A stretch of DNA of 64,000 nt from an uncultured Desulfospira sp. (GCA_963663165.1 OY760175.1:1888001-1952000); one strand, 5' to 3'; counted from the first letter of the stretch, positions 4,295 through 23,553 are shown. Translations and numbers: made by a program. Notes: generated by a model not told the origin, from the sequence alone.

Positions 4295-4981
4295 TCATTC
4301 CTCATAGCATGGAATATCAACAGCCCATTTTTCAATCCCTGGAATCCGAATAATTTTGTTTTCTATATTATTCACGGCGGACTTGACCAAACGTACCCCT
4401 GTCGGGTAAACACCTTTGATTAATTTGACGACAGGATTTTCTCCTTTCCATGTCATTGTTCGACATAGACCGAGAACCTTTTCAATTTTGTTCAGCAATT
4501 CGCCTTTCCAATGATTTTCCAAAACACCCCAAACTCGCTCTATTGGGTTGTATTTACTGTGGTACGGGGGATAGTACACCAAACTAATATTTACAAATGC
4601 TGATTTGGCAAAGTCCACGAGGCGACTAATGAATTGGCTCCTTCGGCTACTATTTTCCGGCCCATTATCAAGATTGATCACCAGTGTATGTGGGGCGAAT
4701 CTTGCGTTCAAAGAAGGCCAGAGTGATTCCAGCGCATCAATCATGAAATCAGAGGTGATGTTGCTTTCAGTGAAGTACATATAATTTTCATCCAGAGCAG
4801 GTATGTTGATACCGAAAAGTTTCAAAAGGGAATCGGGTTTAAAATCATGGTCCGCCGCTTTAAGATTGCAACGACTATATCCGCCTCGGGAATAAGGCCC
4901 TATTTTAATAGTGGCTTTTGCGTCCATTGAGATACGTAAAACGCCATCTGTTTCATCGGCTAGTTGGTTTGTCCTATGCAC
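4295..4981 (-). pseudogene. ISAzo13 transposase C-terminal (DDE) part; N-terminal part split off at 9402-9812
   Basis: RISMDAKA, NLDNGPENSSRRSQF, YYPPYHSKYNPIER motifs. Confidence 0.85.
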
Positions 4982-5434
4982 ATATTCAAAAATGATGTCT
5001 GTTTCAGGAATTTTTTTTTACCTTGGCTTTGGCGACCTTCTTCAGTTTAAAACCCAATTTATTCATTATGGTGGATAGAGTCCGTACTGTTGGCATATTC
5101 TCAGGGTCATATCCCATGTCGTCTGCTAAGATTCAAAAAATGTAACGCGGATACGCCAAATCAGCTACAAAATAATATAACGGGAAGATATCCCGCCGCT
5201 TTACCCCGCCAATAAAATATATAAACCTTACCTCGCTTACCCCGCAGTTATCCCGCCGCGAATTTTTTCGAAAAAAGCTTTGCCAATCTATTTGGAAGAA
5301 GTCAATACTTCCTTGATAAAAAAGGCTCGAAGCTGCAACTTCGAGCCTTCAATGTAGACATCCGAGTAGGTTACGGAAGCCACACCACCGTTTTTATCTA
5401 ACCACGGCTTCCGTAATTTAGCAAGAGCGGAAGC

Positions 5435-5824
5435 ATGGAAATCGTTTTATTAAAACGTATCGAGTGTAAGCGATGTTTCCAAATTTTCTATGTGTGCCGC
5501 AGTTGCTGGCGGGGGCAGGCATATTGCTGTCAAGAATGCCGCCAGGAGGCCCGCAAAGAAGCGCACTGCAAAGCTCAAAAAAAATATCGACAAACGCCAA
5601 AAGGTAAAGAGGCCCACCGTCGTCAAGAAAAAAACAAAAGATTACGTCAAGCTGAAAAAACCATGGATGATACATCTACTATACCCGGTGTAACCCATGA
5701 TAGTGTCTCTCCCAAGCCATTATGTTCCGGCCCCTGTTGCCATTTTTGTGGGAAAATTGGTTGGGTTGTAGAGCATTTTCCCTGGCGCGGATATGCAAAA
5801 CGACCTGTAAGGGCCAATCAATGA
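5435..5824 (+). CDS. Cys-rich zinc-binding basic protein (transposon accessory)
   Basis: CKRC..VCRSC..YCCQEC, a basic helix, and a C-terminal CHFC. Confidence 0.75.
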   Translation: MEIVLLKRIECKRCFQIFYVCRSCWRGQAYCCQECRQEARKEAHCKAQKKYRQTPKGKEAHRRQEKNKRLRQAEKTMDDTSTIPGVTHDSVSPKPLCSGPCCHFCGKIGWVVEHFPWRGYAKRPVRANQ

Positions 5825-5833
5825 AACATCTTA

Positions 5834-6238
5834 ATGGAGGATAAGACAATGAAAAAAGAAATATTGACAGGCCATTGCAACAAAATGAAAAACAGATTTT
5901 CATCCCGGGAGCTATTTAAACTGAGAAACGATATCCCTGTGGATATGCTGATCCGTGACCATTTACAGATTCCATCCAAAATCAGGGATGGTGTTTTCCG
6001 GTTTTTATGTCCTTTGTGCAATGAGTTTCAAACCGCTGTAAATCCAGCCACCAATCTGGCCAGGTGTTTTCGGTGTGAGAAGAATTTCAACACCATTGAT
6101 CTGGTCATGGAAGTCAAGGGATATGGATTCAGGGACAGTGTATTTTTTTTGAAAGAACTGGATGCGGTCTCCTATGTCCCGGCAAATGTGTTGACGTCTC
6201 TTGCCACCGGTATCGGTCAACCCTGGCCTGGGAAGTAA
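5834..6238 (+). CDS. CHC2-type (DnaG primase-like) zinc-finger protein
   Basis: FLCPLCNE...ARCFRCEKNFNTIDLVMEVKGYGFRDSV resembles the primase zinc-binding domain. Confidence 0.78.
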   Translation: MEDKTMKKEILTGHCNKMKNRFSSRELFKLRNDIPVDMLIRDHLQIPSKIRDGVFRFLCPLCNEFQTAVNPATNLARCFRCEKNFNTIDLVMEVKGYGFRDSVFFLKELDAVSYVPANVLTSLATGIGQPWPGK

Positions 6239-6240
6239 AG

Positions 6241-6795
6241 ATGAAACGGCTGCTTCAACTGGAGACCCTTATTGCCCGTAATCAGGAGAGTTTCTATAAG
6301 ATCGGTCAGGCGTTAAAAGAAATCCGTGACAGCCGCCTGTACAAACTGGCCCTGTTTGAGACATTTGAAGCATATACCAGGGAACGGTGGGATATGGGCA
6401 AGTCCCATGCATACCGCCTGATCAAATCTTATGAAGTGATCTATAATTTGTCCCCAATTGGGGACAAAACACCTGCCAATGAATCCCAGGTCCGGCCTCT
6501 TGCTCAATTGGACCCCCTGGACCAGCGCAACACCTGGAAGGCAATCATAGACAACGGTATTGAGTTAACCGCACGGAACATCAAAAAATTTGTAGAGGCC
6601 CAAAAAATACCCCCGGAGAACAAACCGGATTTGGCGGAACGGATTTCGGCTGAATACATGGCAGCCGTACATGCAATGATTGAACAGGTGCGGGTGGCCC
6701 AGCATGATCATTGGCAGCAAACGTCCCGGCAGGCTGCATTGTTGTGGCACAGGGTGATCCGCGAAAAAATTTTATCAAAAGGGGCAAGACAATGA
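6241..6795 (+). CDS. Helical putative DNA-binding protein (transposon accessory)
   Basis: IGQALKEIRDSRLY...TFEAYTRERWDMGKSHAYRLI...PANESQVRPL, a motif common in mobile elements; abuts neighbouring ORFs. Confidence 0.7.
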   Translation: MKRLLQLETLIARNQESFYKIGQALKEIRDSRLYKLALFETFEAYTRERWDMGKSHAYRLIKSYEVIYNLSPIGDKTPANESQVRPLAQLDPLDQRNTWKAIIDNGIELTARNIKKFVEAQKIPPENKPDLAERISAEYMAAVHAMIEQVRVAQHDHWQQTSRQAALLWHRVIREKILSKGARQ

Positions 6796-8459
6796 AGAAC
6801 CTGAGCCTTGATGACCGTTTTTATTTGCTGCTCCATAAAAAAATCATGAATAAAACCGGATCAGCCAAAAGAAGGTCCAAAAAATATTACAAAGACCAGT
6901 ACAGGAAAACCGGCATTATCCCGACGCCCCTTCTACTGGTTGAAAAAGGGATTATGGACGGCCGCAAATGCAGCGGCCGGCCCCGGTCCATAGATGAACA
7001 AACCAAAAGGCGGTTTATCGAAATGGTCAAGGCCTCCTGTGACCCGTCATCCCAGGGGTTTATTTTTATTACCCGAAAAGCCAGAACCATTAAAAATTAC
7101 CACTATTGGCTTGAAAGAGAATTGGGAAAAACCATCAGCCTTCCGGCACTCAGGCGATGTGCCCAAAGGGAAGGCCTTAAATTTTACCTGGAAAAAGAAG
7201 ATTTTGAAGAAAATGCCCCGGTGAAAAACGCATTCAAGCCTGTTCCGGTGTTTGGCCTGATACAGGTAGACGGTTGCAACTTTCGATATTTAAAAATCAA
7301 AAATGAGGCTGGCCACTGGCAAAAACCCCAAGTCATTGAAACGTTTGATACCGGTTCCCGGTACATGTTTGAACTTGATGCCTATTTCGATGAAAGCAGC
7401 TTAAGCTCAGTGGATTTGTTTAACCGGTTTTTGCTTTCCACCCCATTTCCCCAGAAGAAAGTCCGGTTCAGGCCGGATAACGCCACAGGATTTGTAAATC
7501 TCAAAAGAGTCATCAACGCCTTGAATATAAAACATTCCGTTCCCGGAGGATTTTATCTGGCGCCGGATTTTTCAAGGGTAAGTGCCCCCAGGGACAAGGC
7601 CCATCTTGAGTCCTCCCATCGCAGTCTTCATAATTTTGAAATCCGAATCATCAAGGCGTTTGAAGACAGGATTGTAAAGACCGTTCCAGGGGTTATCTTC
7701 AATAATAAGAAAAAAGAAAAAATCACTGTGACACTCCTTGATATTACACTCCGGGATTTAAGACACAGCCCCCTGATAAAAGAATACCGCCACGAACATA
7801 ACCACACCAAACATTATTTTAGCGAAAATGGAAAGATCAGTGCATGGGTTCCGGCACAAAAGCTGGAAGAATTTTTATCAAGGCAAGCCGATATCCTTAC
7901 CTTTTCACCGGATGAGGTGCAGGAATATATGAAGTATGGCTACAGGAAAATAAAAGCCACTGTATCTAACAAAAGAACCATTCGCCATGACAACCGGATC
8001 TATTGTGTAACCAGTGGTACAGACCGGTTCAGCAGGCATAAAAGTACACCGGTGCAAATATCAGTATATAAGGGCAAGCTGTTTATTTTTGAACGGGGGG
8101 AAGACGGCATACTATTGGGCGAAGCCCTTGCCACAAAGCCGTTTGACAAACCACCTGACCCAAAATCTGTACCAGTGGCCCCGGATGAACTCGACATGAT
8201 GATCATTTTTCTGGAAAAGCACAACATGGCCGTCGACCGGCGAGTCTTAATTGAAGCTTATCATAGCGGCCTCACTCTGGCCCGGGCTCAACAAGTGCTT
8301 CATCATAATCAATCCAGGTACAAGAATTATATGAAAAAGATGCGGCAACCTGAAACACAGAAAAAGCAGGCGGTATTCAATGCCTTTATGCTTGACTGCC
8401 GGAAATTGATCAATACAAACCATGTGGCCACGTATGCATCCTGCGGAGATTTAACATGA
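6792..8459 (+). CDS. DDE (rve-type) transposase/integrase
   Basis: Candidate triad IQVDG / RPDNA / KAHLESSH; ATG at 6792 overlaps the upstream stop (ATGA). Confidence 0.85.
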   Translation: MKNLSLDDRFYLLLHKKIMNKTGSAKRRSKKYYKDQYRKTGIIPTPLLLVEKGIMDGRKCSGRPRSIDEQTKRRFIEMVKASCDPSSQGFIFITRKARTIKNYHYWLERELGKTISLPALRRCAQREGLKFYLEKEDFEENAPVKNAFKPVPVFGLIQVDGCNFRYLKIKNEAGHWQKPQVIETFDTGSRYMFELDAYFDESSLSSVDLFNRFLLSTPFPQKKVRFRPDNATGFVNLKRVINALNIKHSVPGGFYLAPDFSRVSAPRDKAHLESSHRSLHNFEIRIIKAFEDRIVKTVPGVIFNNKKKEKITVTLLDITLRDLRHSPLIKEYRHEHNHTKHYFSENGKISAWVPAQKLEEFLSRQADILTFSPDEVQEYMKYGYRKIKATVSNKRTIRHDNRIYCVTSGTDRFSRHKSTPVQISVYKGKLFIFERGEDGILLGEALATKPFDKPPDPKSVPVAPDELDMMIIFLEKHNMAVDRRVLIEAYHSGLTLARAQQVLHHNQSRYKNYMKKMRQPETQKKQAVFNAFMLDCRKLINTNHVATYASCGDLT

Positions 8460-9118
8460 AGGCAGATTTTATCAGTGACAAACGAAGGGTATCATACCTG
8501 AGCGCCACTTATAGCCGGATCTACCGGGGCCGGAGCGTACTCATTGAGGGAGATTTTGGAGCGGGAAAAACCAGGTTTTTAAAACTGCTTCGTCCCAAAA
8601 AACTTCATGCCGTATGGGTAGAGTCCCTGTTCAACATACACGAAACCCTGGCATCCATACTCAAAGAATTGAACTATGACACCACAGCCACATATCGCAG
8701 AACTCCCCAGTACCTGAAAATGATCTGCAACCTGTCCAACTGCTTTATTATTATTGATGAGGCCAATGATCTGGATACCAGGGTCTGGCCATATCTTAAG
8801 CGGATCATTGATGCCGGTGTTCCTATTGTTTTTGCAGGGCTTCCAAAGGTCAGGACCTATTTGATTCGCAATCACCCTGATATCCTCAGCCGGTTGAAAA
8901 CCCTGATTTTATATCCCATAGAGGTTGAGGGCTTTATCGAACAATATAAAGATATCCAGCAGGAAGCCGTTGAGCAAATTTATATGGCGGTCAAAGGCGA
9001 CATGCGTAAATTTAAAGAAATCTGTACTGACTGCCGGGACAAGGCAAAGGAATTGAACCACCAATTTGTTGACATTAATCTTGCCCTGGAGTTTATATCT
9101 GACCTTCCTCCCCAGTAA
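8456..9118 (+). CDS. AAA+ ATPase (transposition helper, IstB/TniB/MuB-like)
   Basis: Walker A GDFGAGKT and Walker B IIIDEA; overlaps the transposase stop. Confidence 0.88.
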   Translation: MKADFISDKRRVSYLSATYSRIYRGRSVLIEGDFGAGKTRFLKLLRPKKLHAVWVESLFNIHETLASILKELNYDTTATYRRTPQYLKMICNLSNCFIIIDEANDLDTRVWPYLKRIIDAGVPIVFAGLPKVRTYLIRNHPDILSRLKTLILYPIEVEGFIEQYKDIQQEAVEQIYMAVKGDMRKFKEICTDCRDKAKELNHQFVDINLALEFISDLPPQ

Positions 9119-9930
9119 TCCCTGAAAAGTAGATCCGTAAAAACAGGCCACTTCTGATTTAACCGGAAGATGGCCTGTTTATATTTTGACCTTAATTGAT
9201 TAACGCAATTTTTCGCCTGGATATACCTGTGAAAATCAGGGAACCACAGATTGTTTTTGAATCTTTTTTGAACCGTTACATTAATTTGCAACTTTCAATA
9301 TTTTTGACTGCCAACCTAACCTACTAAATTTATATGAAAAACCATTTCTTTTTTGAAATAATGAACGAAAAAAAATCCGTTACATTATTTGAATGTGAGC
9401 AGTCGTCAACTAATCGACGGAATACTTCATTCGCAGATATTGGGGAATATAAATTCTGGGTACGGAATGTAGGATCAGTCTGACATATAGGGTTTACAAT
9501 ACGAGTTATGTCCTCTTTTAAATTCGGAAAATGTTCTAAACACGATTTCCGGCCTCGTCCGGAAAAATTATCAACACAGGTAACTCCGCTTTCTATTTCC
9601 CGTCGCCCTTTGATTATTGTTTTCCGATCCCAACCCAGTTCTCTTTCAGCCTTTAGTTGTCCGCCGTGCCCCATAAGGGAGACAACGCGTGCCATGAATT
9701 GGCGCCGTTCATGGCCTTTTAATTTGCTTCGAGTGGTATTCAGAAAATCCTTTAGTGGTGGCGTTAATTCCGATATAGTTTTGGGTAAATTGTGCTTAGA
9801 ATGATCAAACATGGTCCTCCTGTATTTTTTATGTAATCTTCCATGTTGACCATAAACTATCGATTCCATGTTGTCTATAGAAATCAGAATTCAGACTATG
9901 GAATTGTGGATATTAATTTTTCTGAGGCCC

Positions 9931-10528
9931 TTATTCGTTCCAGAGAGTTGAGATATGCCTCTGGGTCGGTAGATGGAAAATAAGCAAATAGCGTATCTTT
10001 ATAAACTAGATCACCTGTGAAAAGAAAACCATTTTCTTTTTCCCATAAACACATATGCCCTGGAGAATGACCTGGGGTATGCAGTACTTGAAGACTACGT
10101 TCTCCTATATTAATACTTTCGTTCCCTTTTAATAGTTTTTTTGGCGTACCTTGAAAGAACTCATACTCCTCAACGTTGTAGCCTTTTGGCAAGCCACAGC
10201 GATCAACAACCATTTCTTTTATTTGTTCAATCGTTAATGGGAATTCTCCTTTGAGCCAGTTGAGTTCTGCTTTATGAGCATAAAAATTTGGGAAATGCTT
10301 ATGTCCGCCAATGTGATCCCAATGGATATGAGTGGCTATAGCGATTATTGGTTTGTCTGTTAGTTTAATGACCTCATTATAGATATTGCATATTCCAAGG
10401 CCTGTATCAATTAGTAAACTGCATTCAGTGCCATTCAAAAGATAGCAATGTGTTTCTTCCCAGTGTCGATATTCACTAATAATATATGTGTTTTTATTGA
10501 TTTGATCTATTGTAAACCAGTCGTTCAT
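9931..10528 (-). pseudogene. MBL-fold metallo-hydrolase cassette gene, 3'-truncated by ISAzo13
   Basis: THIHWDHIGG, HTPGHSPGH, FTGD. The C-terminus runs into the IS end (RASEKLISTIP is IS-derived). Confidence 0.88.
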
Positions 10529-10584
10529 CCCAATGGCCTTTCTGATTCTTAAGCGAAGTACTTTTTTGCTGTGGCGTTTTGTAC

Positions 10585-10713
10585 ACCCAACGGGGAGCTA
10601 ACCCGCCGGGAAAGTAACGGCGACAAACCTTAAAAAAACCAAGGGTTTTGGTTAAAATCACACCGTTTCAAAGCGGCTCAGTTTTCCCGGTCGGGTTCAG
10701 CGTTTGGTTAGTG
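10585..10713 (-). repeat. attC site 2
   Basis: R'' CACTAAC ... R' GTTGGGT; body identical to attC 4. Confidence 0.9.
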
Positions 10714-10716
10714 GCT

Positions 10717-11166
10717 TTATAATCCCCAAACCTCTTCCATATCGTCTATTGATAAATCATCATATCTGTTCATTGTTGCAAGCCATTCAGGCATATCCTC
10801 TTTGACACGTATTTTGAGATCATCGAGATCTTCTTTATCAATTTCACCGAGTTCGAAAAGAAACTGATAAAATTTTTTCAAGCTAGTAGCATTGCTTTTG
10901 ATTTGAGCAGGGCTTGACCATGATGCTTTTTTGATAAACCAGTACCCTAAAAACATCCCAATGTCTGATGAACCATCTTTTGCTTCAACCGCATCTTCAT
11001 AAAGAAGAAAGTCATTTATATAAAAATCGACATTTTCAATATGCTTTCTTATCGTCTGAACTTTAAGTCCTGAACTTTCCAGCCAATTTTCAAAATCTTT
11101 CAGCAGCTTTTTATTTTTTTTCCGAATTTCATTACATTCGGTTTCATATTTTTCATAATTATCCAT
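10717..11166 (-). CDS. Stand-alone tyrosine-recombinase core-binding (SAM-like) domain protein, copy 1
   Basis: LLKDFENWLESSGLKVQTIRKHIENVDFY...SLKKFYQFL; no catalytic RHRY domain. Confidence 0.7.
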   Translation of the reverse strand: MDNYEKYETECNEIRKKNKKLLKDFENWLESSGLKVQTIRKHIENVDFYINDFLLYEDAVEAKDGSSDIGMFLGYWFIKKASWSSPAQIKSNATSLKKFYQFLFELGEIDKEDLDDLKIRVKEDMPEWLATMNRYDDLSIDDMEEVWGL

Positions 11167-11195
11167 TTCATATTCCTATTCGGTGGTGGTTTCAC

Positions 11196-11324
11196 CCCTA
11201 ACGGGGAGCTCAGCCGCCCGGAGACTATAACCGAGGACTTCCCTAAAATTAAATTCTTTTCAAAAACCAAGAGCTTTCAAAAAGCCGCTAGCTCTCCGGG
11301 TCGGCCTGCAGCGTTTTGTTATAT
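11196..11324 (-). repeat. attC site 3
   Basis: R'' ATATAAC ... R' GTTAGGG; long imperfect palindrome. Confidence 0.9.
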
Positions 11325-11575
11325 GTATAATTGTTGAATTCACCTTGTCTTTCTTGCCAGCGGACTTCAGAGTAACACATATGCCCAGTTTTCCTTAAAC
11401 TTAAGAAATCCATCATTAAGAGTCATAGAAATTCGTTGAGAATAAATTACACTGGGAGTTCATAATTAAATTCTTCAAGTTTTATCATTGTCTCTCTAAC
11501 ACTCATGGTCACTTTACGCAAATCTTCTTTATCTATTTGGGCTTTTGACGCCACCTGCAAATATTTTAAAAAAAT

Positions 11576-11941
11576 TCAACTCTTGGTCTTTATTTTGTCC
11601 TTTGCATATAATCCAATATACAAGCCCATAGCGAACAAGATCACCGAAAAACTCTTTAACGCAATTGATAATCCAAATTTTAAATAAAAAAAGTAAATCA
11701 ATGTCGAAAAGATAAGCCCGCCTATTATCGATACTAAAATCTTAAACGCCAAATCAGAAAATGAACTGTAATTAGAAAGCATCTTTTCAGATATGACTAT
11801 TACTATTAGTGAAATAATAGCGAATACAATACAACCAATCAGGTTGGCTATAGATTGTTCCGCCATAAAAAAAACTATTCCATTCAAGACCATGAACAAA
11901 AAAGATAGAATAAACGCCAAGTAAAGCAATTTTCGTTTCAT
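11576..11941 (-). CDS. Hypothetical 4-TM membrane protein (cassette)
   Basis: Four hydrophobic segments; likely start MKRKLL just after the R' box. Confidence 0.7.
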   Translation of the reverse strand: MKRKLLYLAFILSFLFMVLNGIVFFMAEQSIANLIGCIVFAIISLIVIVISEKMLSNYSSFSDLAFKILVSIIGGLIFSTLIYFFYLKFGLSIALKSFSVILFAMGLYIGLYAKDKIKTKS

Positions 11942-11956
11942 GGGATTCTCTCTAAA

Positions 11957-12085
11957 ATATAACGGGGAGCTAACCCGCCGGGAAAGTAACGGCGACAAAC
12001 CTTAAAAAAACCAAGGGTTTTGGTTAAAATCACACCGTTTCAAAGCGGCTCAGTTTTCCCGGTCGGGTTCAGCGTTTGGTTAGTG
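11957..12085 (-). repeat. attC site 4
   Basis: Same body as attC 2; R' GTTATAT. Confidence 0.9.
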
Positions 12086-12088
12086 GCT

Positions 12089-12538
12089 TTATAATCCCCA
12101 AACCTCTTCCATATCGTCTATTGATAAATCATCATATCTGTTCATTGTTGCAAGCCATTCAGGCATATCCTCTTTGACACGTATTTTGAGATCATCGAGA
12201 TCTTCTTTATCAATTTCACCGAGTTCGAAAAGAAACTGATAAAATTTTTTCAAGCTAGTAGCATTGCTTTTGATTTGAGCAGGGCTTGACCATGATGCTT
12301 TTTTGATAAACCAGTACCCTAAAAACATCCCAATGTCTGATGAACCATCTTTTGCTTCAACCGCATCTTCATAAAGAAGAAAGTCATTTATATAAAAATC
12401 GACATTTTCAATATGTTTTCTTATCGTCTGAACTTTAAGTCCTGAACTTTCCAGCCAATTTTCAAAATCTTTCAGCAGCTTTTTATTTTTTTTCCGAATT
12501 TCATTACATTCGGTTTCATATTTTTCATAATTATCCAT
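12089..12538 (-). CDS. Recombinase core-binding-like protein, copy 2 (identical protein)
   Basis: Same 149-aa sequence as 10717-11166. Confidence 0.7.
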   Translation of the reverse strand: MDNYEKYETECNEIRKKNKKLLKDFENWLESSGLKVQTIRKHIENVDFYINDFLLYEDAVEAKDGSSDIGMFLGYWFIKKASWSSPAQIKSNATSLKKFYQFLFELGEIDKEDLDDLKIRVKEDMPEWLATMNRYDDLSIDDMEEVWGL

Positions 12539-12565
12539 TTCATTCCTATTCGGTGGTGGTTTCAC

Positions 12566-12625
12566 CCCTAACGTCGCTAATCAGCCGCGCGGCTTTTTGC
12601 GTCGGCTGAATTAGCATTGTTATAT
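12566..12625 (-). repeat. attC site 5 (short, ~60 bp)
   Basis: ATATAACAATGCTAATTCAGCCGAC...CGGCTGATTAGCGACGTTAGGG. Confidence 0.88.
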
Positions 12626-13276
12626 CATTTCTATTTGTATTGCATCCTTGTTTGCCCTAACAAATTCAAAAATTTTACGTATATCAGGGAATGGATCATC
12701 ATAAAAAGCAGTATCATGCTTATCAAAATGTTCCCACATTTGATCTTCGTTGATATTTTCGATTTCTTGCAGCTGTTTCCAGCGTTCGCCTCTATCAGTC
12801 GAGGGGCCTTCTTTTCCAAAAATACTAATCACGGACTTAAACCTTTCCTCAGCTACCGAATCACCACTCAAGGCGATTATATCATACAGGTCTTTCCAGT
12901 GATCACTTGCTGAATTGAAAAAGTATTGATGAAAACCACCATTATAGATTTCTGGTTCGAAAGCAAATAGGCCAGTAATAGCACTTTCTAATTTGGTGAT
13001 GGGTTTACCATTTAGAATTTTCCATGAAATGATTGTATTGAAAGCATCAAGAACAATATCCTCGCCTTCATCAAGGTCGACATCAAAGAAAGCATCTATA
13101 TCTGAACCAAATTTAAATCGTATTTCTGAAAAGGCCTTTTTGTATTCTTTCCGTGCTTCTTCCGAAATAGGTTCAATACCCTCTCCATAGGGAGATGTCT
13201 TTTCCATCATCTCGTGAATTAAATCTTTGTAAGACCCGACCTTATATTCCATTTCAGTGATTTGTTCCTTATACAT
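12620..13276 (-). CDS. DMP19/DUF4375-like acidic protein (cassette)
   Basis: EIYNGGFHQYFFNS motif; very acidic; the stop codon lies in R''. Confidence 0.75.
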   Translation of the reverse strand: MYKEQITEMEYKVGSYKDLIHEMMEKTSPYGEGIEPISEEARKEYKKAFSEIRFKFGSDIDAFFDVDLDEGEDIVLDAFNTIISWKILNGKPITKLESAITGLFAFEPEIYNGGFHQYFFNSASDHWKDLYDIIALSGDSVAEERFKSVISIFGKEGPSTDRGERWKQLQEIENINEDQMWEHFDKHDTAFYDDPFPDIRKIFEFVRANKDAIQIEMI

Positions 13277-13282
13277 ATTGAG

Positions 13283-13412
13283 ATATAACGGGGAGCTGAG
13301 GGGCCAGGCTTTTAAACCACAAAAGCTCCGATAAAAGTTTTAATTTTCCTAAACCAGGGACTCCCAAAAGGCCGCTCTGTAAGCCTGGTCCCTCTCCAGC
13401 GTTTTGTTCTTT
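13283..13412 (-). repeat. attC site 6
   Basis: R'' AAAGAAC ... R' GTTATAT; similar to attC 12. Confidence 0.88.
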
Positions 13413-13468
13413 TCTATTTTTATAGTGCCTTTCAATTTGACTACCGTTTTCATCTAAAGGATATTATC

Positions 13469-14966
13469 CAATGTCATTAACTTAAGAAGATTTTGTGTTT
13501 AACTTGCTGATATTAATGATAAAATCATTGAAAAAATGAAATCGACATGATATACTCAATTCTAATAATAACAGCCAATTATCATAAAAAAAGGAGCATA
13601 TCATGTCGAAATTTGATAACAATTTTACACCGGTTGGCACGGAACCTGCTTTCCAATATATGTGCCAAACTAATTGATTTTCTTAAAAAAAATATCAATT
13701 CTTCAAATTTTATCAATCAACACCGCCAAAGTCCAAAAAATTTCACCCGTAACAGAAAACTGTCCTTTTCAATACTTATATTTTTCCTGATGAATTTGGT
13801 CAAGGGTTCATATCAGGATGAACTCGACCATTTCTTTAAAGCCATATTCGGGTTTGATGTTATAAGGCGATTTATCTCCAAGCCAGCCTTGACCAAAGCC
13901 AGGATGAAATTAAAATACGAGGCATTCTCCGAGCTTAATGATCAGCAGATAGATTTTTTCTATCAGAATTTTGCCCCCTTGAGATGGGAGGGTTTTAATC
14001 TGCTTGCTATAGACGGGTCGACAGCTCAACTGCCCCGGATTGAATCAATATTAAAACATTTTGGAGCATGGAATCCACGCCAGGGAGAAAAATGCCCCAT
14101 GGCCCGCATTTCTCAGATGTTCGATCCACTCAACAAAATAACTGTTGACGCTCAAATTGTCCCCAAAGAAACTGGAGAACGTGAACTGGCCGCCTTCCAT
14201 TGTTTAAAAATGGTACCAGGTGACCTTATACTTCTGGACAGGGGCTATCCAGCATATTGGCTGTTTAATCTCATTCTCAATCAAGGTGCCGATTTTTGCG
14301 CCCGGATTCAGCTAAAAAGATGGAAAATAGTCCGGCAATTTTATAATTCAGGCAAGAAGGAAAAAATCATATCTTTGACGCCATTCCCCAGTTCAATAAA
14401 ACAATGCAAAGAAATGGGGCTTGATTTAAAGCCATTAAAACTACGATTGATTCGGATTGAGTTAGAGACAGGCGAAGCTGAAATCCTCATTACATCCATC
14501 ATTGACAAACAAACCTTTACGCATAATCAGTTTTCTGAACTTTATCATTTGAGGTGGCCTGTAGAAGAAGACTACAAGACTATGAAACAATGGATAGAAA
14601 TAGAAAATTTCACCGGAAAATCAGTCCTGTCCGTTTACCAGGATTTCCATGCGAGAGTGTTCTCAAAGAATCTGACATCAATATTAGCTTTTCCCACTCA
14701 GACCATTATTGACAAAAATACTGAGGATCGGATGTATAAATATAAGCCGAATTTTGCACAGGCTTTATCAAAAATGAAGGACGTTCTTCCGCTATTGTTC
14801 GTTCGCTCAGGTGAAAAGGTTGTTGAGTTGATATCAGCTATACAAGACATTATTGTCAGGACTATAGAACCGGTAAGACCGGGCAGAAAATTTCCAAGGA
14901 ATTTCAATAATCGAAGCGGTCGTTTCCATTGCTGTTATAAACCACTTCGTTAAGTTAATGACATTG
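13469..14966 (+). mobile_element. IS4-family element (1498 bp), copy 1
   Basis: IRs CAATGTCATTAACTTAA; 10-bp TSD GGATATTATC. Confidence 0.93.
13547..14953 (+). CDS. IS4-family transposase
   Basis: LAIDGS, LLDRGY, LYHLRWPVEEDYKTMK (YREK motif); true start uncertain. Confidence 0.9.
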   Translation: MIYSILIITANYHKKRSISCRNLITILHRLARNLLSNICAKLIDFLKKNINSSNFINQHRQSPKNFTRNRKLSFSILIFFLMNLVKGSYQDELDHFFKAIFGFDVIRRFISKPALTKARMKLKYEAFSELNDQQIDFFYQNFAPLRWEGFNLLAIDGSTAQLPRIESILKHFGAWNPRQGEKCPMARISQMFDPLNKITVDAQIVPKETGERELAAFHCLKMVPGDLILLDRGYPAYWLFNLILNQGADFCARIQLKRWKIVRQFYNSGKKEKIISLTPFPSSIKQCKEMGLDLKPLKLRLIRIELETGEAEILITSIIDKQTFTHNQFSELYHLRWPVEEDYKTMKQWIEIENFTGKSVLSVYQDFHARVFSKNLTSILAFPTQTIIDKNTEDRMYKYKPNFAQALSKMKDVLPLLFVRSGEKVVELISAIQDIIVRTIEPVRPGRKFPRNFNNRSGRFHCCYKPLR

Positions 14967-15019
14967 GGATATTATCCAAAACTATGGCAGCCAGCAAACA
15001 TACCCTTCTACAAGTTAAA

Positions 15020-15870
15020 TCAATACATTGTTATAAGTCGGATAGTTTTTTCAACATTGTTTACCTGGAAAGAAATAAGGTATTTTTTAGCTCGACCTCT
15101 CGCTTCACTGAACAAATCAACAACCGTATTAAACTTAATACATTCATAATCTTTATTGTAATCCATATTGAATATATAATTGGTGTTTATAGTATTTCGA
15201 ATGATGTCCCTAAACTGATTAAAACTTAAACTATCAAGTCCAATTATTTGCAAAGCTCCAAGTTTGTTTTCCAATAAATATAAATATTTTTTTTCATCAA
15301 TTTGTACATCAAAATCTTTAATAAGGGCTGGTTGCCTTGTAACTGTGTTAAGAGAAAATATCTGGTCATCGTTATCAAACTCAGAATACCTTCTTTGAAT
15401 TTTAAAAGTTAGAAAGCTGTGATATGCGAACTCCTTTATGTTTCTAATTTTGTATCCATATTTTTCATAATCAATGAAAGAATAGTTAATTGGACTTGAA
15501 TCGTCTATTTCTTCATCTTCGTTGACCGGTAAAATAGCAATTTTTTTATAAAATAAGCATTTCTGTGCTATTGATGAAGCAACTATATCCTTGAGATGGC
15601 AACTATAAGTTATATCGGTATATCCTACGTAGAAAGGCATTTTTTTTAAGCCGCTATCTATATCGGCAAGTTTCGTAGAAGAAATATTATTTATAACTAT
15701 AACGAAATATTGAGAACTGTTTCTATAGTTCAGAGGGGCATTGAAATTTATACTTCGTAGCATTATTTCTTTTACAGCTCTCTGTCCATCTCGATCTTTG
15801 GGGCCGATGAGATCCCCATAAAACATCGCCGTTTTTTCTATACCAACAAGAAGTGGTATAAATCCTCTAA
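15020..15870 (-). pseudogene. 3' part of a ~370-aa hypothetical cassette gene split by ISAzo13 copy B (5' part at 21463-21718)
   Basis: Removing the IS and one TAA joins ...YGSAIF-RGFIPLL... in frame. Confidence 0.85.
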
Positions 15871-16104
15871 GGGATGTGGTAAAATTAAAACCCACAATTC
15901 ATTCCTCATAGCATGGAATATCAACAGCCCATTTTTCAATCCCTGGAATCCGAATAATTTTGTTTTCTATATTATTCACGGCGGACTTGACCAAACGTAC
16001 CCCTGTCGGGTAAACACCTTTGATTAATGAGAGCAATCACGATAATTCATGGACAACGTTTCATGGTAAATAAGGGCTTTCCCGGAGGCCAAGAGAGCCC
16101 GATT

Positions 16105-16893
16105 TTAACTGATAATTTTTTCAGCTTTTTGTAATGTCCTGATCAGATACTGTGTTTTTTTTCGTTCATCCGCATGATTAATCCAATCCTGCCTTTCATT
16201 GATAATGCGATTGTAAATTTCCATTCGTGAAAAACCTCTTCTATAGAGGGCCAGAGCATATGCAAAATCAGTGGCAGATTCGTCACCCTTATCATAGAGG
16301 GAGCGGGAAATATTACCGTTATGGCACACTCCCCCCCGGGGTTGATGGGAAAAGACTTCTTGAGGTCGGGAGGATAATTCTATTTCAGGGACAATAGCCT
16401 GGCATTTCCAGTCCACCCATAATAGCTTTGCCAAAGGGTATTGTCCTGAAGGCGTTCTATGTTTTGCTTTTCTGTTCCTGAACCCGGGGCATCTGCCCCA
16501 CCTGTTTTTCGGGTCGGCGCCGGGATCACTGTGCATGTTTTCCAACCAATACTTTTTTTCGGGAAGGCTTAACGGACGGTCACTGTGAATCCAAATTTGA
16601 TAATTGCCGGGAGATGTTTCCATAACCATCCTGCCTGGTTTAAAGCGGTTTGATATGGATTGATGATGCCGGATAAGCAGGTCAATGTTTAAATCGTCGG
16701 CAAGAAAATAATAAGGCTCAATAACAGGATCAGGTCTGATCAGGATGTGCCTTCCTCCGGCATTTTCAGCTTTAAGATAAGGGATGTTTTTACAAGAGGG
16801 GAGAACGGGCCACCGGCCCTTAATTTCATCAAGAACTGCCAGGCTGAAGCGGTGCTTAAAATAATTGCCGATTTTCCATAGTATTTTTTCCAT
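16105..16893 (-). CDS. RepB'-like (AEP superfamily) DNA primase-domain protein
   Basis: YFLADDL, VMETSPGNYQIWI, SDPGA...WGRCPGFRNRK, and C-terminal DESATDFAYALALYRRG helices. Confidence 0.8.
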   Translation of the reverse strand: MEKILWKIGNYFKHRFSLAVLDEIKGRWPVLPSCKNIPYLKAENAGGRHILIRPDPVIEPYYFLADDLNIDLLIRHHQSISNRFKPGRMVMETSPGNYQIWIHSDRPLSLPEKKYWLENMHSDPGADPKNRWGRCPGFRNRKAKHRTPSGQYPLAKLLWVDWKCQAIVPEIELSSRPQEVFSHQPRGGVCHNGNISRSLYDKGDESATDFAYALALYRRGFSRMEIYNRIINERQDWINHADERKKTQYLIRTLQKAEKIIS

Positions 16894-16930
16894 TGAGGCA
16901 GGCCCGGACCTTTAGAGTCCGGGCGTACGT

Positions 16931-17113
16931 TTAAAACGGCTCGTGTTCTTTATGACGGTTCTTTTCCGTGAGCCTTTGTTTCTGGAATTGCCTGAAGGCC
17001 CGATATTCCATATTCAAGTTTTCAAGTCCGGCAAGGACCATATCCAGGATAAAATGTTCCAATTCCTGTGTAATTTCTTCCAGTTTCATGTCCGGATCAT
17101 CATAAATACCCAT
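16931..17113 (-). CDS. Small hypothetical protein (60 aa)
   Basis: AGGAG RBS; sits in an operon position between the ATPase and the primase. Confidence 0.6.
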   Translation of the reverse strand: MGIYDDPDMKLEEITQELEHFILDMVLAGLENLNMEYRAFRQFQKQRLTEKNRHKEHEPF

Positions 17114-17122
17114 ATTGTTCTC

Positions 17123-17950
17123 CTATGATTTTTTATTGGGCGGCTGTCTGGAATAGACTTCCATAAAAAGTTTTTCGTCCAATTGATTGAGTTCTTTCTC
17201 AATCCCCGCAGCCAGCAGGTCTGCGGCCATACTGTTAAGAACCCGCAGGTTGCCGGCGCAATGGTCTGCAAGGGTCCTGATCAGAGTTTTCGTCATTAAG
17301 TGCGGGGCGCCGGCCTGGTTCAGGCTGTGATCCATGTAATCCAGCAGGTCATCCCGGACATAGGGAAGCAGCGTCAACCGGAACTGCATCCGGCTTCCCA
17401 GCGATACCAGGGATCTTGATCTGAACCGTTCCGGGAGCCGGTCATCGCCGCAAATCACGGTGGTCAACAGGTTTTGGGAGTCAAAGTCCGCGCTGTTCAA
17501 CAAACGCAGTTCATTTAAGCATCCGGTCAGCATCTCCTGGGCTTCATCTATGAGCAGGATGGGCCGGAACAAGGTGGTTTTTACATGATGCCTCCAGCGC
17601 TCCCGAAGATCCTTGAACCCGCCATACCGGTTGGCAGGGCTTAAATTGACACCAAACAAAACTCCCATTTCCCGGTAAAAGTCTCCGACACTGCTTTGGG
17701 GACGTTCCATTACCCCGACAACTACCTCGTCAAGTTTACCGAACTTTTGGGCAATCATCTGCAACGCCTTGGATTTGCCAAGGCCAGGGTCCCCGCTGAT
17801 CAAAGCAAAGCCCCCGTTCAGGGTCATATTCTCAAGACGAAAAATAAAACTGTTCATCAATGGCGGATGCCATAAAGCCTCCACGGGGATATTGGACAAA
17901 AAAGGATTCCATTTAAGGCCGTAATAAGCCAGAAGCTGTTTGTTGTTCAT
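17123..17950 (-). CDS. ExeA-like AAA+ ATPase (transposition helper)
   Basis: YYGLKWNPF, Walker A GDPGLGKS, Walker B LLIDEAQ. Confidence 0.9.
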   Translation of the reverse strand: MNNKQLLAYYGLKWNPFLSNIPVEALWHPPLMNSFIFRLENMTLNGGFALISGDPGLGKSKALQMIAQKFGKLDEVVVGVMERPQSSVGDFYREMGVLFGVNLSPANRYGGFKDLRERWRHHVKTTLFRPILLIDEAQEMLTGCLNELRLLNSADFDSQNLLTTVICGDDRLPERFRSRSLVSLGSRMQFRLTLLPYVRDDLLDYMDHSLNQAGAPHLMTKTLIRTLADHCAGNLRVLNSMAADLLAAGIEKELNQLDEKLFMEVYSRQPPNKKS

Positions 17951-19392
17951 GATTCTCCTTTGGGCAGATAGGCTGGGGGCATGCCGCTTTGGGCATACTC
18001 GGCCATCAGTTTTCTTAATAATGCAGGCTCGGATTCTTTCAATGTTTCATCCGGTAGAATGGTATGTTCAGGTCTCGACTTGATCTTTCGTTTTCCTGAA
18101 GCATTTTTGATTTTGTCTTGGGGGTAGATCGGCGCAATCTGTTTGCCGGTTCTCTGGTCCATGAGCCAGGCCATGGATTTATCCCAATTGGCAAAGCAGA
18201 CATGTAACCGAGGGATATGGTGAAACCGGGAAGGGATCTCAAATCTTACCCCGTTGATGGACACGGTACCGTCAGACTTGCGCTGATTTCTGACTTCGCA
18301 AACTGTAAAGGCGAAACGTAATTGTTCTTCATCCGGTGCCGGCCGGGAAACATCTTTGCCTTCAAGCATGCGTTGAACAGGAGATGTGCCGATGTCACTA
18401 TGCCTGGTTTTGTTATATTCCATCTCGACCCAAGCCTGACTGCGGTGATTGAGATATTCCAGTGTCAGAGGGTCCACCCGGGTCAGCATGGCCATCAATC
18501 TGCCTTCAAGGGTGCCCCAAAAGGCTTCCTGCTTACCGTTTTGATAAGGGCTGTAGGGCAATGTCGTTTCATGAAGTATCCCTGTTTTCTTAAGCCCGTT
18601 GCAAAACTCATGGGAGGTCATGGCAGATCCGTTGTCCGTCATCAGTGCCCTGGGAAGCCCCCTTTTGAAAAAGGCCTGGGTCAATCCATGAATCAAATCC
18701 TGGGTGGTTTCTCCTGAATACCATTGGATGTGGCAGCACAGGCGGGAGTGGTCGTCAAGAATACATAAGGCTTTGGGCGTATACCAGTTACCGTTGTTAT
18801 CCACCACCCGCAGACTGCCTTCATGAAAATCCAGATGCCACAGGCTGTGAACACATTCTGCTTCATATCCACGGATCTCATGGCTTTCGAACCGCGTTGC
18901 GGCAGTTTTCATGCCCGCTGTCTGTTTTTTCTTGGCTGAGGGTTTCCTGGTCCACCCTCTTTCGACCATCCGCCGCCGGACACTGGCATAGGATGGTATC
19001 GATACTGAATTGGCTTTTTCTTGAAGTTCTGCTGCGAAATTATCTGCGTGCAGTTTGTAGCTCCAGTTCGGATAGGTCCGGTATTGTCTGCCCAGCATCC
19101 GGATCAGTTCAGGCGTGAATACAATTGAACCGCCATAGTCTGAACGAACTTTCCGTCCTAAAGCAATGATGGGGTCCTGGGCATTTTTTGCCTTGTAATA
19201 CCAGCTTTCAATAGTTGAAAAATGAAATACCGTCGATTCGTTCGTGATGGGATGGGTGTAAATCTGATTGGAAAGCTTTTCCAGTTCCTTACGCAGCTCA
19301 CCCTTGGCCGGCGGATTTGCCAGCAAACCACCAACGACTGAGAAGCGAAACAAAGCCCATTTATCAACCGGACTTTGGTTTTTACTGTTCAT
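17947..19392 (-). CDS. DDE (rve, Mu-like C-terminus) transposase
   Basis: WHLDFH / MTDNGS / NGKQEAFW triad, YNKTRHS, RKSDGTVSING; likely start MNSKNQ. Confidence 0.9.
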   Translation of the reverse strand: MNSKNQSPVDKWALFRFSVVGGLLANPPAKGELRKELEKLSNQIYTHPITNESTVFHFSTIESWYYKAKNAQDPIIALGRKVRSDYGGSIVFTPELIRMLGRQYRTYPNWSYKLHADNFAAELQEKANSVSIPSYASVRRRMVERGWTRKPSAKKKQTAGMKTAATRFESHEIRGYEAECVHSLWHLDFHEGSLRVVDNNGNWYTPKALCILDDHSRLCCHIQWYSGETTQDLIHGLTQAFFKRGLPRALMTDNGSAMTSHEFCNGLKKTGILHETTLPYSPYQNGKQEAFWGTLEGRLMAMLTRVDPLTLEYLNHRSQAWVEMEYNKTRHSDIGTSPVQRMLEGKDVSRPAPDEEQLRFAFTVCEVRNQRKSDGTVSINGVRFEIPSRFHHIPRLHVCFANWDKSMAWLMDQRTGKQIAPIYPQDKIKNASGKRKIKSRPEHTILPDETLKESEPALLRKLMAEYAQSGMPPAYLPKGES

Positions 19393-19507
19393 AGGCCGGG
19401 GTCCTTTCAATTTTAAGTTAAAATTTTCAGCGGAATGCTGATAAAAATCCCGGCCCCTTTGATAGAACAGTTGATCGCCCAAGGCCACGCCCATCTTCTG
19501 CGTGAGA

Positions 19508-20095
19508 TTACCCGGCCCTTATTTTTTGTGATATTTCATTGCCTTGAGACAAGAATGACAAACAGGAGATCAACGTTTCTTTGATGGATGCCTGTTGATG
19601 CAGATAGAAGTTGACCAAACTTGCCGGAAGACTGTCATTTTTCACGCTTGCAGGCACTCGGCCCCGGATTTTCTTCCATTGAGCGCTTGTTGGAAATATT
19701 TCTTTAAACAAACCGACCCAGCGTCTAAGGGTGTTGCGGGAGATACCGATTGTTTCAGCAAACCTGGACATCGTGATACCTACAGATTGGTTCTGCCAGT
19801 CGGACACAATCGTCAGAATGGCCGCATACCAGTAAATGTTTTTACCAAGGAAACGGCAGGTTGGCGGGATCAAACGCCGTCGGCAGCCTTCCCTTCCGCA
19901 GCATAAACTGAATTGTAAAAAACATTCTTCAGACAACCCTTCAGGCTCCCCCCTGGGTTTGCGCAGATAATTGGCATAATACAACGGTCCCTGGCAGTGG
20001 GGGCACTTCATCTGTCTATAACGTTCGGCTGTTGCCAGATCTATTTTGTATAGATTCCAAAAAAGACTTTCGCTTTTTAGAACTTCTGATAGCAT
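19508..20095 (-). CDS. Zn-ribbon + HTH protein (DUF6431-like transposon accessory)
   Basis: CPHCQGPL, CCGREGCRRR, ISRNTLRRW. Confidence 0.72.
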   Translation of the reverse strand: MLSEVLKSESLFWNLYKIDLATAERYRQMKCPHCQGPLYYANYLRKPRGEPEGLSEECFLQFSLCCGREGCRRRLIPPTCRFLGKNIYWYAAILTIVSDWQNQSVGITMSRFAETIGISRNTLRRWVGLFKEIFPTSAQWKKIRGRVPASVKNDSLPASLVNFYLHQQASIKETLISCLSFLSQGNEISQKIRAG

Positions 20096-21462
20096 ATCTC
20101 CTGCCCTGTTATTGGGTGGGGAGGCAGGAGTTTCACGATTATTTGCGAGATAAACAAGGGAACTTCTGCCTCAAACCTGACATATCTTGCAAATTATCTT
20201 CAATTTTTCCATGATTTTCTGTGACCATTCTCAATTAATTTGACGACAGGATTTTCTCCTTTCCATGTCATTGTTCGACATAGACCGAGAACCTTTTCAA
20301 TTTTGTTCAGCAATTCGCCTTTCCAATGATTTTCCAAAACACCCCAAACTCGCTCTATTGGGTTGTATTTACTGTGGTACGGGGGATAGTACACCAAACT
20401 AATATTTACAAATGCTGATTTGGCAAAGTCCACGAGGCGACTAATGAATTGGCTCCTTCGGCTACTATTTTCCGGCCCATTATCAAGATTGATCACCAGT
20501 GTATGTGGGGCGAATCTTGCGTTCAAAGAAGGCCAGAGTGATTCCAGCGCATCAATCATGAAATCAGAGGTGATGTTGCTTTCAGTGAAGTACATATAAT
20601 TTTCATCCAGAGCAGGTATGTTGATACCGAAAAGTTTCAAAAGGGAATCGGGTTTAAAATCATGGTCCGCCGCTTTAAGATTGCAACGACTATATCCGCC
20701 TCGGGAATAAGGCCCTATTTTAATAGTGGCTTTTGCGTCCATTGAGATACGTAAAACGCCATCTGTTTCATCGGCTAGTTGGTTTGTCCTATGCACATAT
20801 TCAAAAATGATGTCTGTTTCAGGAATTTTTTTTTTACCTTGGCTTTGGCGACCTTCTTCAGTTTAAAACCCAATTTATTCATTATGGTGGATAGAGTCCG
20901 TACTGTTGGCATATTCTCAGGGTCATATCCCATGTCGTCAACTAATCGACGGAATACTTCATTCGCAGATATTGGGGAATATAAATTCTGGGTACGGAAT
21001 GTAGGATCAGTCTGACATATAGGGTTTACAATACGAGTTATGTCCTCTTTTAAATTCGGAAAATGTTCTAAACACGATTTCCGGCCTCGTCCGGAAAAAT
21101 TATCAACACAGGTAACTCCGCTTTCTATTTCCCGTCGCCCTTTGATTATTGTTTTCCGATCCCAACCCAGTTCTCTTTCAGCCTTTAGTTGTCCGCCGTG
21201 CCCCATAAGGGAGACAACGCGTGCCATGAATTGGCGCCGTTCATGGCCTTTTAATTTGCTTCGAGTGGTATTCAGAAAATCCTTTAGTGGTGGCGTTAAT
21301 TCCGATATAGTTTTGGGTAAATTGTGCTTAGAATGATCAAACATGGTCCTCCTGTATTTTTTATGTAATCTTCCATGTTGACCATAAACTATCGATTCCA
21401 TGTTGTCTATAGAAATTAGAATTCAGACTATGGAATTGTGGATATTAATTTTTCTGAGGCCC

Positions 21463-21718
21463 TAAATATTGCAGAACCATAAATAGTATTTTCAATCCTC
21501 ATCGAATCGAAAATAAAACAAACTTCCATTTTGTCTGTTTGTGGGGTAAGTACATTCTTCAGTTTTTCATATGGCACACCAATTTCTTTTAGCCTTTCAA
21601 CCATTGGCCTAAAAACACCCTTTATTTCATTTGAAATCTGGTCATTATCAAGTTTCAAATGATTCTTTAGCATATCCCAAATTATCAAGTTGCGTGTATC
21701 GAATGTGTATACTTTCAT
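21463..21718 (-). pseudogene. 5' part of the split hypothetical cassette gene
   Basis: RBS GAGG; ORF runs into the IS end; joins 15020-15870 in frame. Confidence 0.85.
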
Positions 21719-21843: not shown

Positions 21844-21971
21844 AAAGAACGACAAGCTCAGCCGACCGGGGGTAAATCGCCGAGTACGTTGTAAAAGCAA
21901 AATCCTTTCATAAATCAAGGCCTTTTAAAAGTCGCTAAGCCCCCCGGGTCGGCTGGAGCGGCTTGTTCGAC
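21844..21971 (-). repeat. attC site 7
   Basis: R'' GTCGAAC ... R' GTTCTTT; same subfamily as attC 9 and 10. Confidence 0.9.
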
Positions 21972-23540: not shown

Positions 23541-23553
23541 ATTTTCCTTTGTT

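Follow-up and report, generated by a model that had tools for sequence, protein, structure and literature searches.

Two five-gene transposons with different putative second-strand priming modules in the genome of an uncultured Desulfospira species

How the strand displaced in copy-out transposition is converted to double-stranded DNA is unsettled, and the step is left to host factors; to our knowledge, the known copy-out insertion sequences (IS) leave copy-out replication to the host. The nearest concept to a primase module residing in an IS is the insertion sequence excision enhancer (IEE), a PrimPol-helicase of the archaeo-eukaryotic primase (AEP) type that is described as acting at the copy-out IS replication step (bioRxiv 10.1101/2023.06.07.543989). 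Single-stranded circles are reported to be primed in three ways, by the host RNA polymerase, by the host primase or by an encoded primase (PMC4595007). Here we analyzed two elements, A and B, in a 64,000-nucleotide stretch (hereafter the window, with positions counted from its first letter) of the genome of an uncultured Desulfospira sp. (GCA_963663165.1). The genome is a single 6.74-Mb contig (hereafter G000), of which the window is G000:1888001-1952000; collected loci bear L numbers. B encodes a RepB' primase and carries a site resembling ssiA of an IncQ plasmid, and A encodes a primase-type zinc-binding domain next to a repeat cluster. From comparison of the sequences, we consider it probable that both elements move by self-primed copy-out via a single-stranded circle, with interchangeable modules for priming the second strand.

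The IEE is a protein of its own (780 aa) whose action on many IS leads to their loss, whereas the primase of B (B5) lies inside the element and has a private site. The three priming routes known from the single-strand origins (sso) of rolling-circle plasmids and of the integrative and conjugative element (ICE) ICEBs1 (sso, Frpo) match the three helper types met here, but here the modules reside on IS-like elements of 4 kb that have neither a relaxase nor a Rep. Strand-biased circularization is also reported for the strand-biased circularizing elements (SE), which are ~15 kb and tyrosine-recombinase based, with no primase named in the abstract (PMC10214605). As to the core genes, the closest described relative of B is Tn6049, for which 12 copies, often associated with genomic islands, are reported in Cupriavidus metallidurans CH34 (PMC2864759) and a 4-bp direct repeat in pHS87a (PMC4739549). 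We identified the pMOL28 element of C. metallidurans, to which the protein identities listed below refer, as Tn6049 by its size, ends and distribution as given in those two papers. Tn6049 and B have a common gene order, namely a Cys/helix-turn-helix (HTH) open reading frame (ORF), an rve transposase, an ExeA-like ATPase and a small ORF; the fourth ORF has the same position but no detectable similarity. The right inverted repeats (IRs) are similar, and those of B are imperfect, start with TG and are flanked by a short target-site duplication (TSD) of 3-6 bp. Tn6049, however, is ~3.5 kb long and has neither a primase nor an ssi site (best profile score 5.7), while B has both.

The features of A, of B and of the two interrupted IS copies are as follows (window positions).

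5124-9401, + strand: element A, 4278 bp, TG...CA ends, a DDE + AAA+ transposon with no Pfam family for its transposase
5118-5123 (left) and 9402-9407 (right): TSD of A, GTCGTC, 6 bp
5124-5147, + strand: left IR of A, 24 bp, matching the right IR (9378-9401) at 21/24 positions
5189-5256, + strand: TA(C/T)CCCGC cluster of A, in which four repeats surround an AT-rich spacer; the zinc-domain helper may use it as its cis-site
5435-5824, + strand: A1, 129-aa Cys-rich ORF, homologues of which are also first in IS21 and recombinase-trio (RIT) elements
5834-6238, + strand: A2, stand-alone primase-type zinc-binding domain, 134 aa, CxxC-x15-CxxC; homologues mostly begin at Met 5885
6241-6795, + strand: A3, helical protein of 184 aa belonging to the A core and retained in the RepB'-bearing A-type element L174
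6792-8459, + strand: A4, 555-aa DDE transposase (D160, D229, E273)
8456-9118, + strand: A5, 220-aa AAA_22 ATPase
4266-9931, - strand: ISAzo13 copy split by A into pieces 4266-5123 and 9402-9931
16028-20233, - strand: element B, 4206 bp, TG...CA ends, Tn6049-like core plus RepB' primase
16023-16027, other copy 20234-20238: TSD of B, ATTAA, 5 bp
20208-20233, - strand: left IR of B, 26 bp, 18/26 identical to the right IR (16028-16053)
19508-20095, - strand: B1, 195-aa Cys + HTH ORF, 31% identity to the first ORF of Tn6049
17947-19494, - strand: B2, DDE transposase with a Pfam rve match above cut-off and 47% identity to the Tn6049 transposase
17123-17950, - strand: B3, ExeA-like AAA_22 ATPase, 50% identity to the Tn6049 ATPase
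16931-17113, - strand: B4, 60-aa ORF, present in part of the B lineage
16105-16893, - strand: B5, two-domain RepB' (AEP) primase
16323-16354, - strand: ssiA-like site in the linker codons of B5, on the sense strand of the element, 327 bp from its right end
15870-21463, - strand: ISAzo13 copy split by B into pieces 15870-16027 and 20234-21463

A and B each have five ORFs, all co-oriented. A preliminary description of two five-gene elements with different IRs and proteins, each within an ISAzo13 copy, was borne out by the boundaries, the IRs and the reconstructed empty sites, each of which matches 20 other ISAzo13 copies. The genome holds six copies of A, all identical, together with five copies of two ~77%-identical relatives (A', two copies; A'', three), and 11 copies of B with identities of 97-100%. 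The TSD of A is 6 bp in four of the six copies, the remaining two having no matching TSD. The TSD lengths of 6 and 5 bp first given for the two elements hold for the window copies, but the second is not a fixed value of B, since its 11 copies have TSDs of 5, 5, 6, 6, 5, 3, 3, 5, 6, 4 and 5 bp. A and B are both genuine and recently active.

The priming gene of B was examined against the RepB' primase of plasmid RSF1010. B5 contains both RepB' Pfam domains, PF16793 (catalytic) and PF22448 (helix bundle), above cut-off in one chain, and matches PDB 3h20 with an E value of 1e-11. The residues of RSF1010 RepB' reported as essential or tested are W50, D77, D78, D134, R145, D238 and R285 (PMC8567376). 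Their equivalents in B5 are Y39 (an aromatic residue in place of W50), D66, D67, D123, R134, D204 and R252; in 50 B5 homologues, Y39, D66, D67, D123 and R134 are each conserved in 50/50, D204 in 40/50 and R252 in 45/50. By its sequence, B5 is an intact RepB' primase.

The linker motif P-x-G-G-V-C of these primases is conserved at the DNA level (52 non-redundant genes). GTG encodes V189 in 41 of 41 cases and GGG encodes G187 in 40 of 43; at the remaining 40 four-fold sites the third base is close to random (entropies 1.35-2.0 bits). A profile of two blocks was built from 39 of the element motifs, and ssiA was located in the IncQ plasmid by the criteria of PMC8567376. In that plasmid the profile placed ssiA first (score 23.0) and a site on the opposite strand 73 bp away second (14.4), followed by a score of 1.4; shuffled sequences (n=300) reached 19.7 at best and 5.0 on average. 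The second match is probably ssiB. Over the whole genome the profile detected the 11 B copies and three further sites at 41.3, with nothing else above 20.2. B carries a single site, the next-best score within it being 4.9, and no site was found in A, A', A'', the IS21 element C, the RITs D, E and F or Tn6049 (best score 7.1). RSF1010 RepB' and B5 are both two-domain primases with the tested residues present, and their sites have a common layout, a pyrimidine-rich 5' part, a C/G hairpin and then GTG, so that the B-type profile detects ssiA. B differs from RSF1010 in having one site instead of the ssiA/ssiB pair, in the location of the site inside the primase gene and in its carrier, a transposon.

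A scan of GTDB genomes for B5 confirmed 126 relatives and returned 80 loci, some of which are copies from one genome. Seventy RepB' loci had at least 1.3 kb of upstream sequence: 53 had both a transposase and an ATPase there, two a transposase only, one an ATPase only and 14 neither. Two transposase lineages that are only ~25% identical carry a common RepB' primase. RepB' with its ssi site is also present on the A-type element L174, on the IS21 elements L192 and L209 and on the RITs L077, L149, L202 and L193. The zinc domain, in turn, closes the gene row of a third Tn6049-like lineage whose first ORF is DUF6431 (5 genomes), and there takes the slot held by RepB' in B. It likewise comes last in IS21 elements of 3 genomes and is among the leading genes in RITs. 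RepB' with ssi and the zinc domain with its repeats are each found on four unrelated cores, namely Tn6049-like, A-type, IS21 and tyrosine-recombinase RIT. In a quick IQ-TREE tree of 83 rows, 73 element-borne primases formed one clade (SH-aLRT 97) in which the cores are intermixed, and outside it stood nine non-IS primases and the IncQ row; the tree label of L093 is wrong, this locus being an X-lineage locus with an inserted RIT. The broader class of primase-associated transposons proposed at the outset finds firmer support than was first suggested, in the 53 of 70 RepB' loci behind an rve transposase and an ATPase, and in the two modules, each with its own cis-site, on four cores; it does not extend to a primase in A, which encodes none. 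The module is patchy, the ssi pattern occurring in 4 of 301 genomes of the order, and viral contigs contained no primase relative, no ssi pattern and no junction pattern. Most non-IS RepB' primases have no site; L123 has one site upstream. L113, L115-L119, L127 and L129 have RepB'-like primases without an internal site in a gene run like that of an ICE or a plasmid leading region, with neighbours that read as Ssb-like and RadC-like from their ORFs. L114 has an opposite-strand pair of ssi-like sites (4102 and 4955) in the IncQ geometry, one of them inside a RepB' gene outside any IS, and is a candidate for the type of module donor.

The three extra ssi sites in the genome belong to a gene-less element, which has B-type IRs and 5-bp TSDs in 3/3 copies:

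G000:2726987-2727359, 4409221-4409593 and 5266572-5266944: 373-bp mini-element (L297)

The likeness of this mini-element to B is limited to the ends and the ssi site, and there is no primase remnant. A metagenome scan for the ssi site gave 91 loci, 70 inside RepB' genes and 21 outside. Those inside lay behind rve/ATPase genes in 51 cases and behind a recombinase trio in three, and 16 had no upstream core (12 of these are short; one A-type and two IS21 loci have their core downstream). Those outside comprise L184, a relative of the 373-bp element, and L198, an unrelated 391-bp mini-element with B-lineage ends, neither with a TSD; six mini-elements of ~230-410 bp with the ends of primase-bearing RITs; three with ends like those of RIT D; four with another repeated end; one at the left of a full element (L166); and five unclassified. 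The strongest indication of a cis requirement for the site is that independent mini-elements retain it and the ends alone. L153, L173 and L231 are RIT mini-elements with ssi directly upstream of attC-like sequences, and in L195, L216, L223 and L235 ssi stands beside an end sequence and a small ORF that also occur 3' of the zinc domain in L271, L272 and L275.

RepB' is reported to begin its primer at GTG and to extend it toward the 5' end of the template (PMC8567376), which means leftward along B. In L106, L109 and L166, ssi lies upstream of the first gene on the same strand, ~100 bp inside the left IR in the case of L109, and in the RIT mini-elements it lies 20-30 bp inside the left end, again on the same strand. 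From such a left-end site, a primer would copy the whole element only on a circle. One candidate circle was found: the contig L175 measures 4428 bp and overlaps itself at its termini by 129 bp, which corresponds to a 4299-bp circle of a B-lineage element in which the right end, 4 bp and the left end follow one another. In the genome itself (G000:6328350), the right end of an A'' copy adjoins the left end of an A copy with a 2-bp spacer.

Relatives of B without a primase have a different structure in the same slot. Searching from the ATPase side gave 14 B-type loci in 10 of 45 other genomes; six have RepB' with ssi, eight have a hairpin and none has neither. The hairpin, which in L305 lies at 2375-2580, is ~200 nt long and non-coding, occurs in 20 of 46 genomes and lies directly 3' of an ExeA-type ATPase in 19 of 30 collected loci, in several lineages. 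Its folding is stronger than that of shuffled sequences in 5/5 cases (z -3.1 to -6.4), and across 14 related sequences compensatory change is seen at 16 of the 36 pairs of the consensus (RNA folding parameters); three hairpin loci gave no match in Rfam. The full hairpin is found in 0/52 zinc-domain loci and behind 0/144 RepB' genes, with 3' half-remnants behind two. We read it as a putative host-primed single-strand origin. In Tn6049 the slot holds no more than a simple hairpin. Another rve + ExeA element of this genome (G000:5653287-5657503), the ATPase end of which is split by an IS, has the 200-nt hairpin in the 3' slot.

The corresponding gene of A had been described as primase-related, like that of B. 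For A2 this holds only as far as a zinc-binding domain: the Pfam match is to Zn_ribbon_DnaG (29.2 bits, cut-off 24.9), and family scans found no TOPRIM/RNA-polymerase, AEP or other catalytic domain, so that A2 is not a DnaG-type primase. Four Cys are invariant in the arrangement CxxC-x15-CxxC, a spacing that the T7 primase also has, and the zinc ligands of CHC2 are absent. Judged by its predicted domain content, the word primase overstates A2. Synonymous sites in 25 zinc-domain genes are free, with no DNA-level motif inside the gene. A TA(C/T)CCCGC cluster lies instead 40-130 bp inside one end of zinc-domain elements, whatever the recombinase. The genome has 18 such clusters, of which 15 coincide precisely with its 15 zinc-domain elements; B, C, E, F and the locus L174 contain none. 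As background, exact TACCCCGC has eight matches in 486 kb of RepB' loci, in 7 of 152 loci. We tentatively propose, at somewhat less than even chances, that the non-catalytic zinc domain reads this cluster and recruits or licenses a host priming activity. Three further elements of the genome, the IS21 element C (G000:12489-17028; L294) and the RITs E (2833221-2837458; L295) and F (2323150-2327865), have a related winged-helix ORF, which in C and E matches HTH_36 weakly. About 610-660 bp in from the left end, C and E have a short G/C palindrome in common, and with the winged-helix ORF it may form a fourth helper/site pair.

The route that we favour, given here for B, would run as follows. A module would consist of a cis-site and, usually, a protein that reads it. 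First, the transposase would link the two ends of the element through the 3' end of the sense strand. Second, host synthesis from the freed flanking 3'-OH would displace the sense strand as a single-stranded circle. Third, RepB', which like its site is observed in B, would prime at the exposed ssiA-like site, and a host polymerase would complete the double-stranded circle with abutted ends. Fourth, transposase and ATPase would integrate this circle with a TSD of 3-6 bp, the length seen in the B copies. In A the zinc domain and its cluster would, with the lesser likelihood given above, serve the same priming step. In the primase-less relatives of B the 200-nt hairpin would serve as a host-primed origin in the same slot, and the modules would have been swapped among Tn6049-like, A-type, IS21 and RIT elements. 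A wider form of this proposal is possible, though we hold it only tentatively. Three kinds of DDE elements and the RITs might all pass through a single-stranded circle, each with one of several mutually exclusive origin modules (RepB' with ssi; the zinc domain with the TA(C/T)CCCGC cluster, redirecting host priming; the host-primed hairpin; perhaps the winged-helix protein with a site), and mini-elements might parasitise this toolkit with ends and origin.

Several facts weigh against this route. The compared sequences are related, so the counts overstate their independence. The gap range of the ssi profile was chosen with ssiA already known, and plain local alignment gives no significant similarity of ssiA either to B, for which 48 of 200 shuffles scored as well, or to A; the B site is shorter than ssiA and its stem weaker (-3.0 vs -8.7 kcal/mol). 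Tn6049, with 12 reported copies, has neither primase nor ssi, which means that RepB' is not universally needed. Lying directly behind the last gene, the hairpin may instead act as a terminator or as an RNA. By exact pattern, the repeat cluster is missing in the zinc-domain loci L272, L275, L280/L281/L290 and L288; in L271 the left end itself is absent. As to the circle, L169 is identical to L175 and from one assembly, so that the two represent one sample, and a collapsed tandem dimer would look alike. No end-to-end joint of B was present in four Logan contig sets, in which contigs drop rare forms, and a narrower junction pattern had no match in metagenome contigs but would have missed the ends of L175.

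It is worth noting that other interpretations of the modules can be made. In replicative transposition of the Mu/Tn5053 type, primase and site would restart or prime synthesis at the strand-transfer (Shapiro) intermediate and yield cointegrates, with no free circle. The TG...CA ends, the MuA/TnsB-like transposases with MuB-like ATPases (PHROG 310 and 296, and TnsB fold matches), the two A copies with non-matching flanks, as after rearrangement, and the position of the B site near the right end of the strand that a left-end fork would displace are all in keeping with this. We nevertheless regard it as unlikely, for on a linear element, priming from the same-strand sites at left ends (L106, L109, L166 and the RIT mini-elements) would cover no more than a short stretch. 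The junction in L175, the same module on tyrosine-recombinase RITs, the lack of a resolvase in A or B and the matching TSDs in 11 of 11 B copies also speak against it.

The primase and the zinc domain could otherwise be passengers, captured from a plasmid or ICE replicon, with the site kept because RepB' binds its own gene or by hitch-hiking and with no role in transposition. Related primases do occur outside IS in ICE- or plasmid-like loci (the nine tree rows), the IncQ-like site pair of L114 with one site in the primase gene would be a plausible donor, and Tn6049 has no primase gene. Mere passengers, however, would hardly leave gene-less mini-elements of several independent origins that retain only the site from the interior, a single clade of 73 element-borne primases over four cores, or helpers as mutually exclusive as the hairpin counts indicate. 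We consider this explanation quite improbable.

It was further supposed in the preliminary description that such elements may prefer other mobile elements as safe targets; a preference for ISAzo13 in particular was considered here as well. For the target counts, 22 repeat families were defined by hand, and 17 insertions of A and B were compared with 121 insertions of 18 other families. Seven of the 17 lie in or against another IS, compared with 17 of the 121 (p=0.012) and with an IS share of the genome of 5.4%, and B lies twice inside A-family elements (G000:2584991 and 5560455). Without the two window copies, which had prompted the idea, the count falls to 5/15 (p=0.069), and without an abutted, non-nested case as well to 4/15 (p=0.25). 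Insertions of the other IS are likewise more frequent in IS than the IS share (p=0.0003), which purifying selection and recent activity would lead one to expect; the local IS density is equal (median 0.18 for A and B, 0.16 for other IS), and 10 of the 17 insertions lie outside the defined IS families. A general preference for IS may exist, with an initial statistical backing that fades on these removals; the choice of mobile elements, above all ISAzo13, as safe targets seems to us quite improbable. The ISAzo13-specific form found no support and was rejected: A and B entered ISAzo13 only in the window (2 of 17 insertions), and three other IS types entered it elsewhere. The two ISAzo13 hosts are different copies in an IS-crowded attC-like cassette array, and we read these insertions as incidental to that IS-rich, dispensable array.

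That the excised circle is a short-lived replicon or is transferred single-stranded between cells, with the modules serving amplification or establishment and not copy-out, is very improbable, for although RepB'/ssi and single-strand origins are reported to serve plasmids and ICEs in this way (PMC4595007), the A repeats flank an AT-rich spacer as in an iteron origin, and close relatives occur across many genera, B has one site and not an ssiA/ssiB pair (next-best score 4.9), and neither A nor B encodes a helicase, an initiator or a relaxase in its five ORFs. In particular, family scans of the A and B ORFs found no RepA helicase and no RepC initiator, which sets both elements apart from an IncQ replicon.

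Apart from the modules, the core genes were classified by family and structure searches. In A4, D160, D229 and E273 are invariant in 32/32 aligned homologues, and 683 relatives were found among 8000 candidates scored; A4 has no Pfam rve match. From these alignments, A4 defines a predicted transposase family that Pfam misses. Its predicted model has a pLDDT of 60, low in the catalytic core, and its best fold matches, TnsB and IstA, are hence weak (E 6e-6 to 1e-3). A tblastn search of A4 against the B copies gave no match at E 1e-4, so that A is without a transposase of the Tn6049/B type. The predicted model of A3 (pLDDT 58) had no PDB match, and atlas searches with A1 and A3 returned only unnamed or automatically named clusters. 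Transposase and ATPase match PHROG 310 and 296. The IS21 family and other copy-out-paste-in IS (IS3, IS30, IS256) resemble A and B in the pair of DDE and AAA+ proteins, the TG...CA ends and the variable TSD, and IS21 is named among the formers of abutted-end circles (bioRxiv 10.1101/2023.06.07.543989). However, B2 reached only 38 bits against the NCBIfam IS21 cut-off of 160, and A4 had no match; neither A5 nor B3, both AAA_22, matched an IstB family at E 0.05. True IS21 relatives with RepB' (L192, L209) or with the zinc domain (L279-L283) are distinct from A and B. B2 also stayed below the IS481 cut-off (106 vs 224 bits), and B has five ORFs where IS481 has a single one, although the RefSeq label of the Tn6049 transposase gene is IS481.

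The cores of A and B are of known or near-known kinds, and the modular priming system appears undescribed: a full-text literature search, with subscription journals, ISfinder and TnCentral outside its scope, gave no description of a RepB'/ssi module or of zinc-domain or hairpin helpers in IS. The second-strand step can be tested directly with B, since it provides the enzyme and its 32-base site and has a natural minimal element of 373 bp. The same module on RITs predicts single-strand excision by these poorly understood recombinase trios. Private priming could free elements from host-specific replication factors and widen their range, and a primase zinc domain that stands alone and has a DNA address of its own would, if true, be a new kind of replication adaptor.

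The attC-like array around the two elements (window 800-30000) contains five ISAzo13 copies, group II intron remnants at cassette sites and a duplicated cassette (10589-11203 and 11961-12573). Six attC-like sites were found in the window by pattern, with no adjacent integrase; the one integron integrase of the genome is 2.3 Mb distant. Cassettes near A and B encode a PIN protein (1177-1596), a DMP19-like protein (12620-13276) and, on the - strand at 21915-23591, a 558-aa ORC/CDC6-like ATPase (PF24389).

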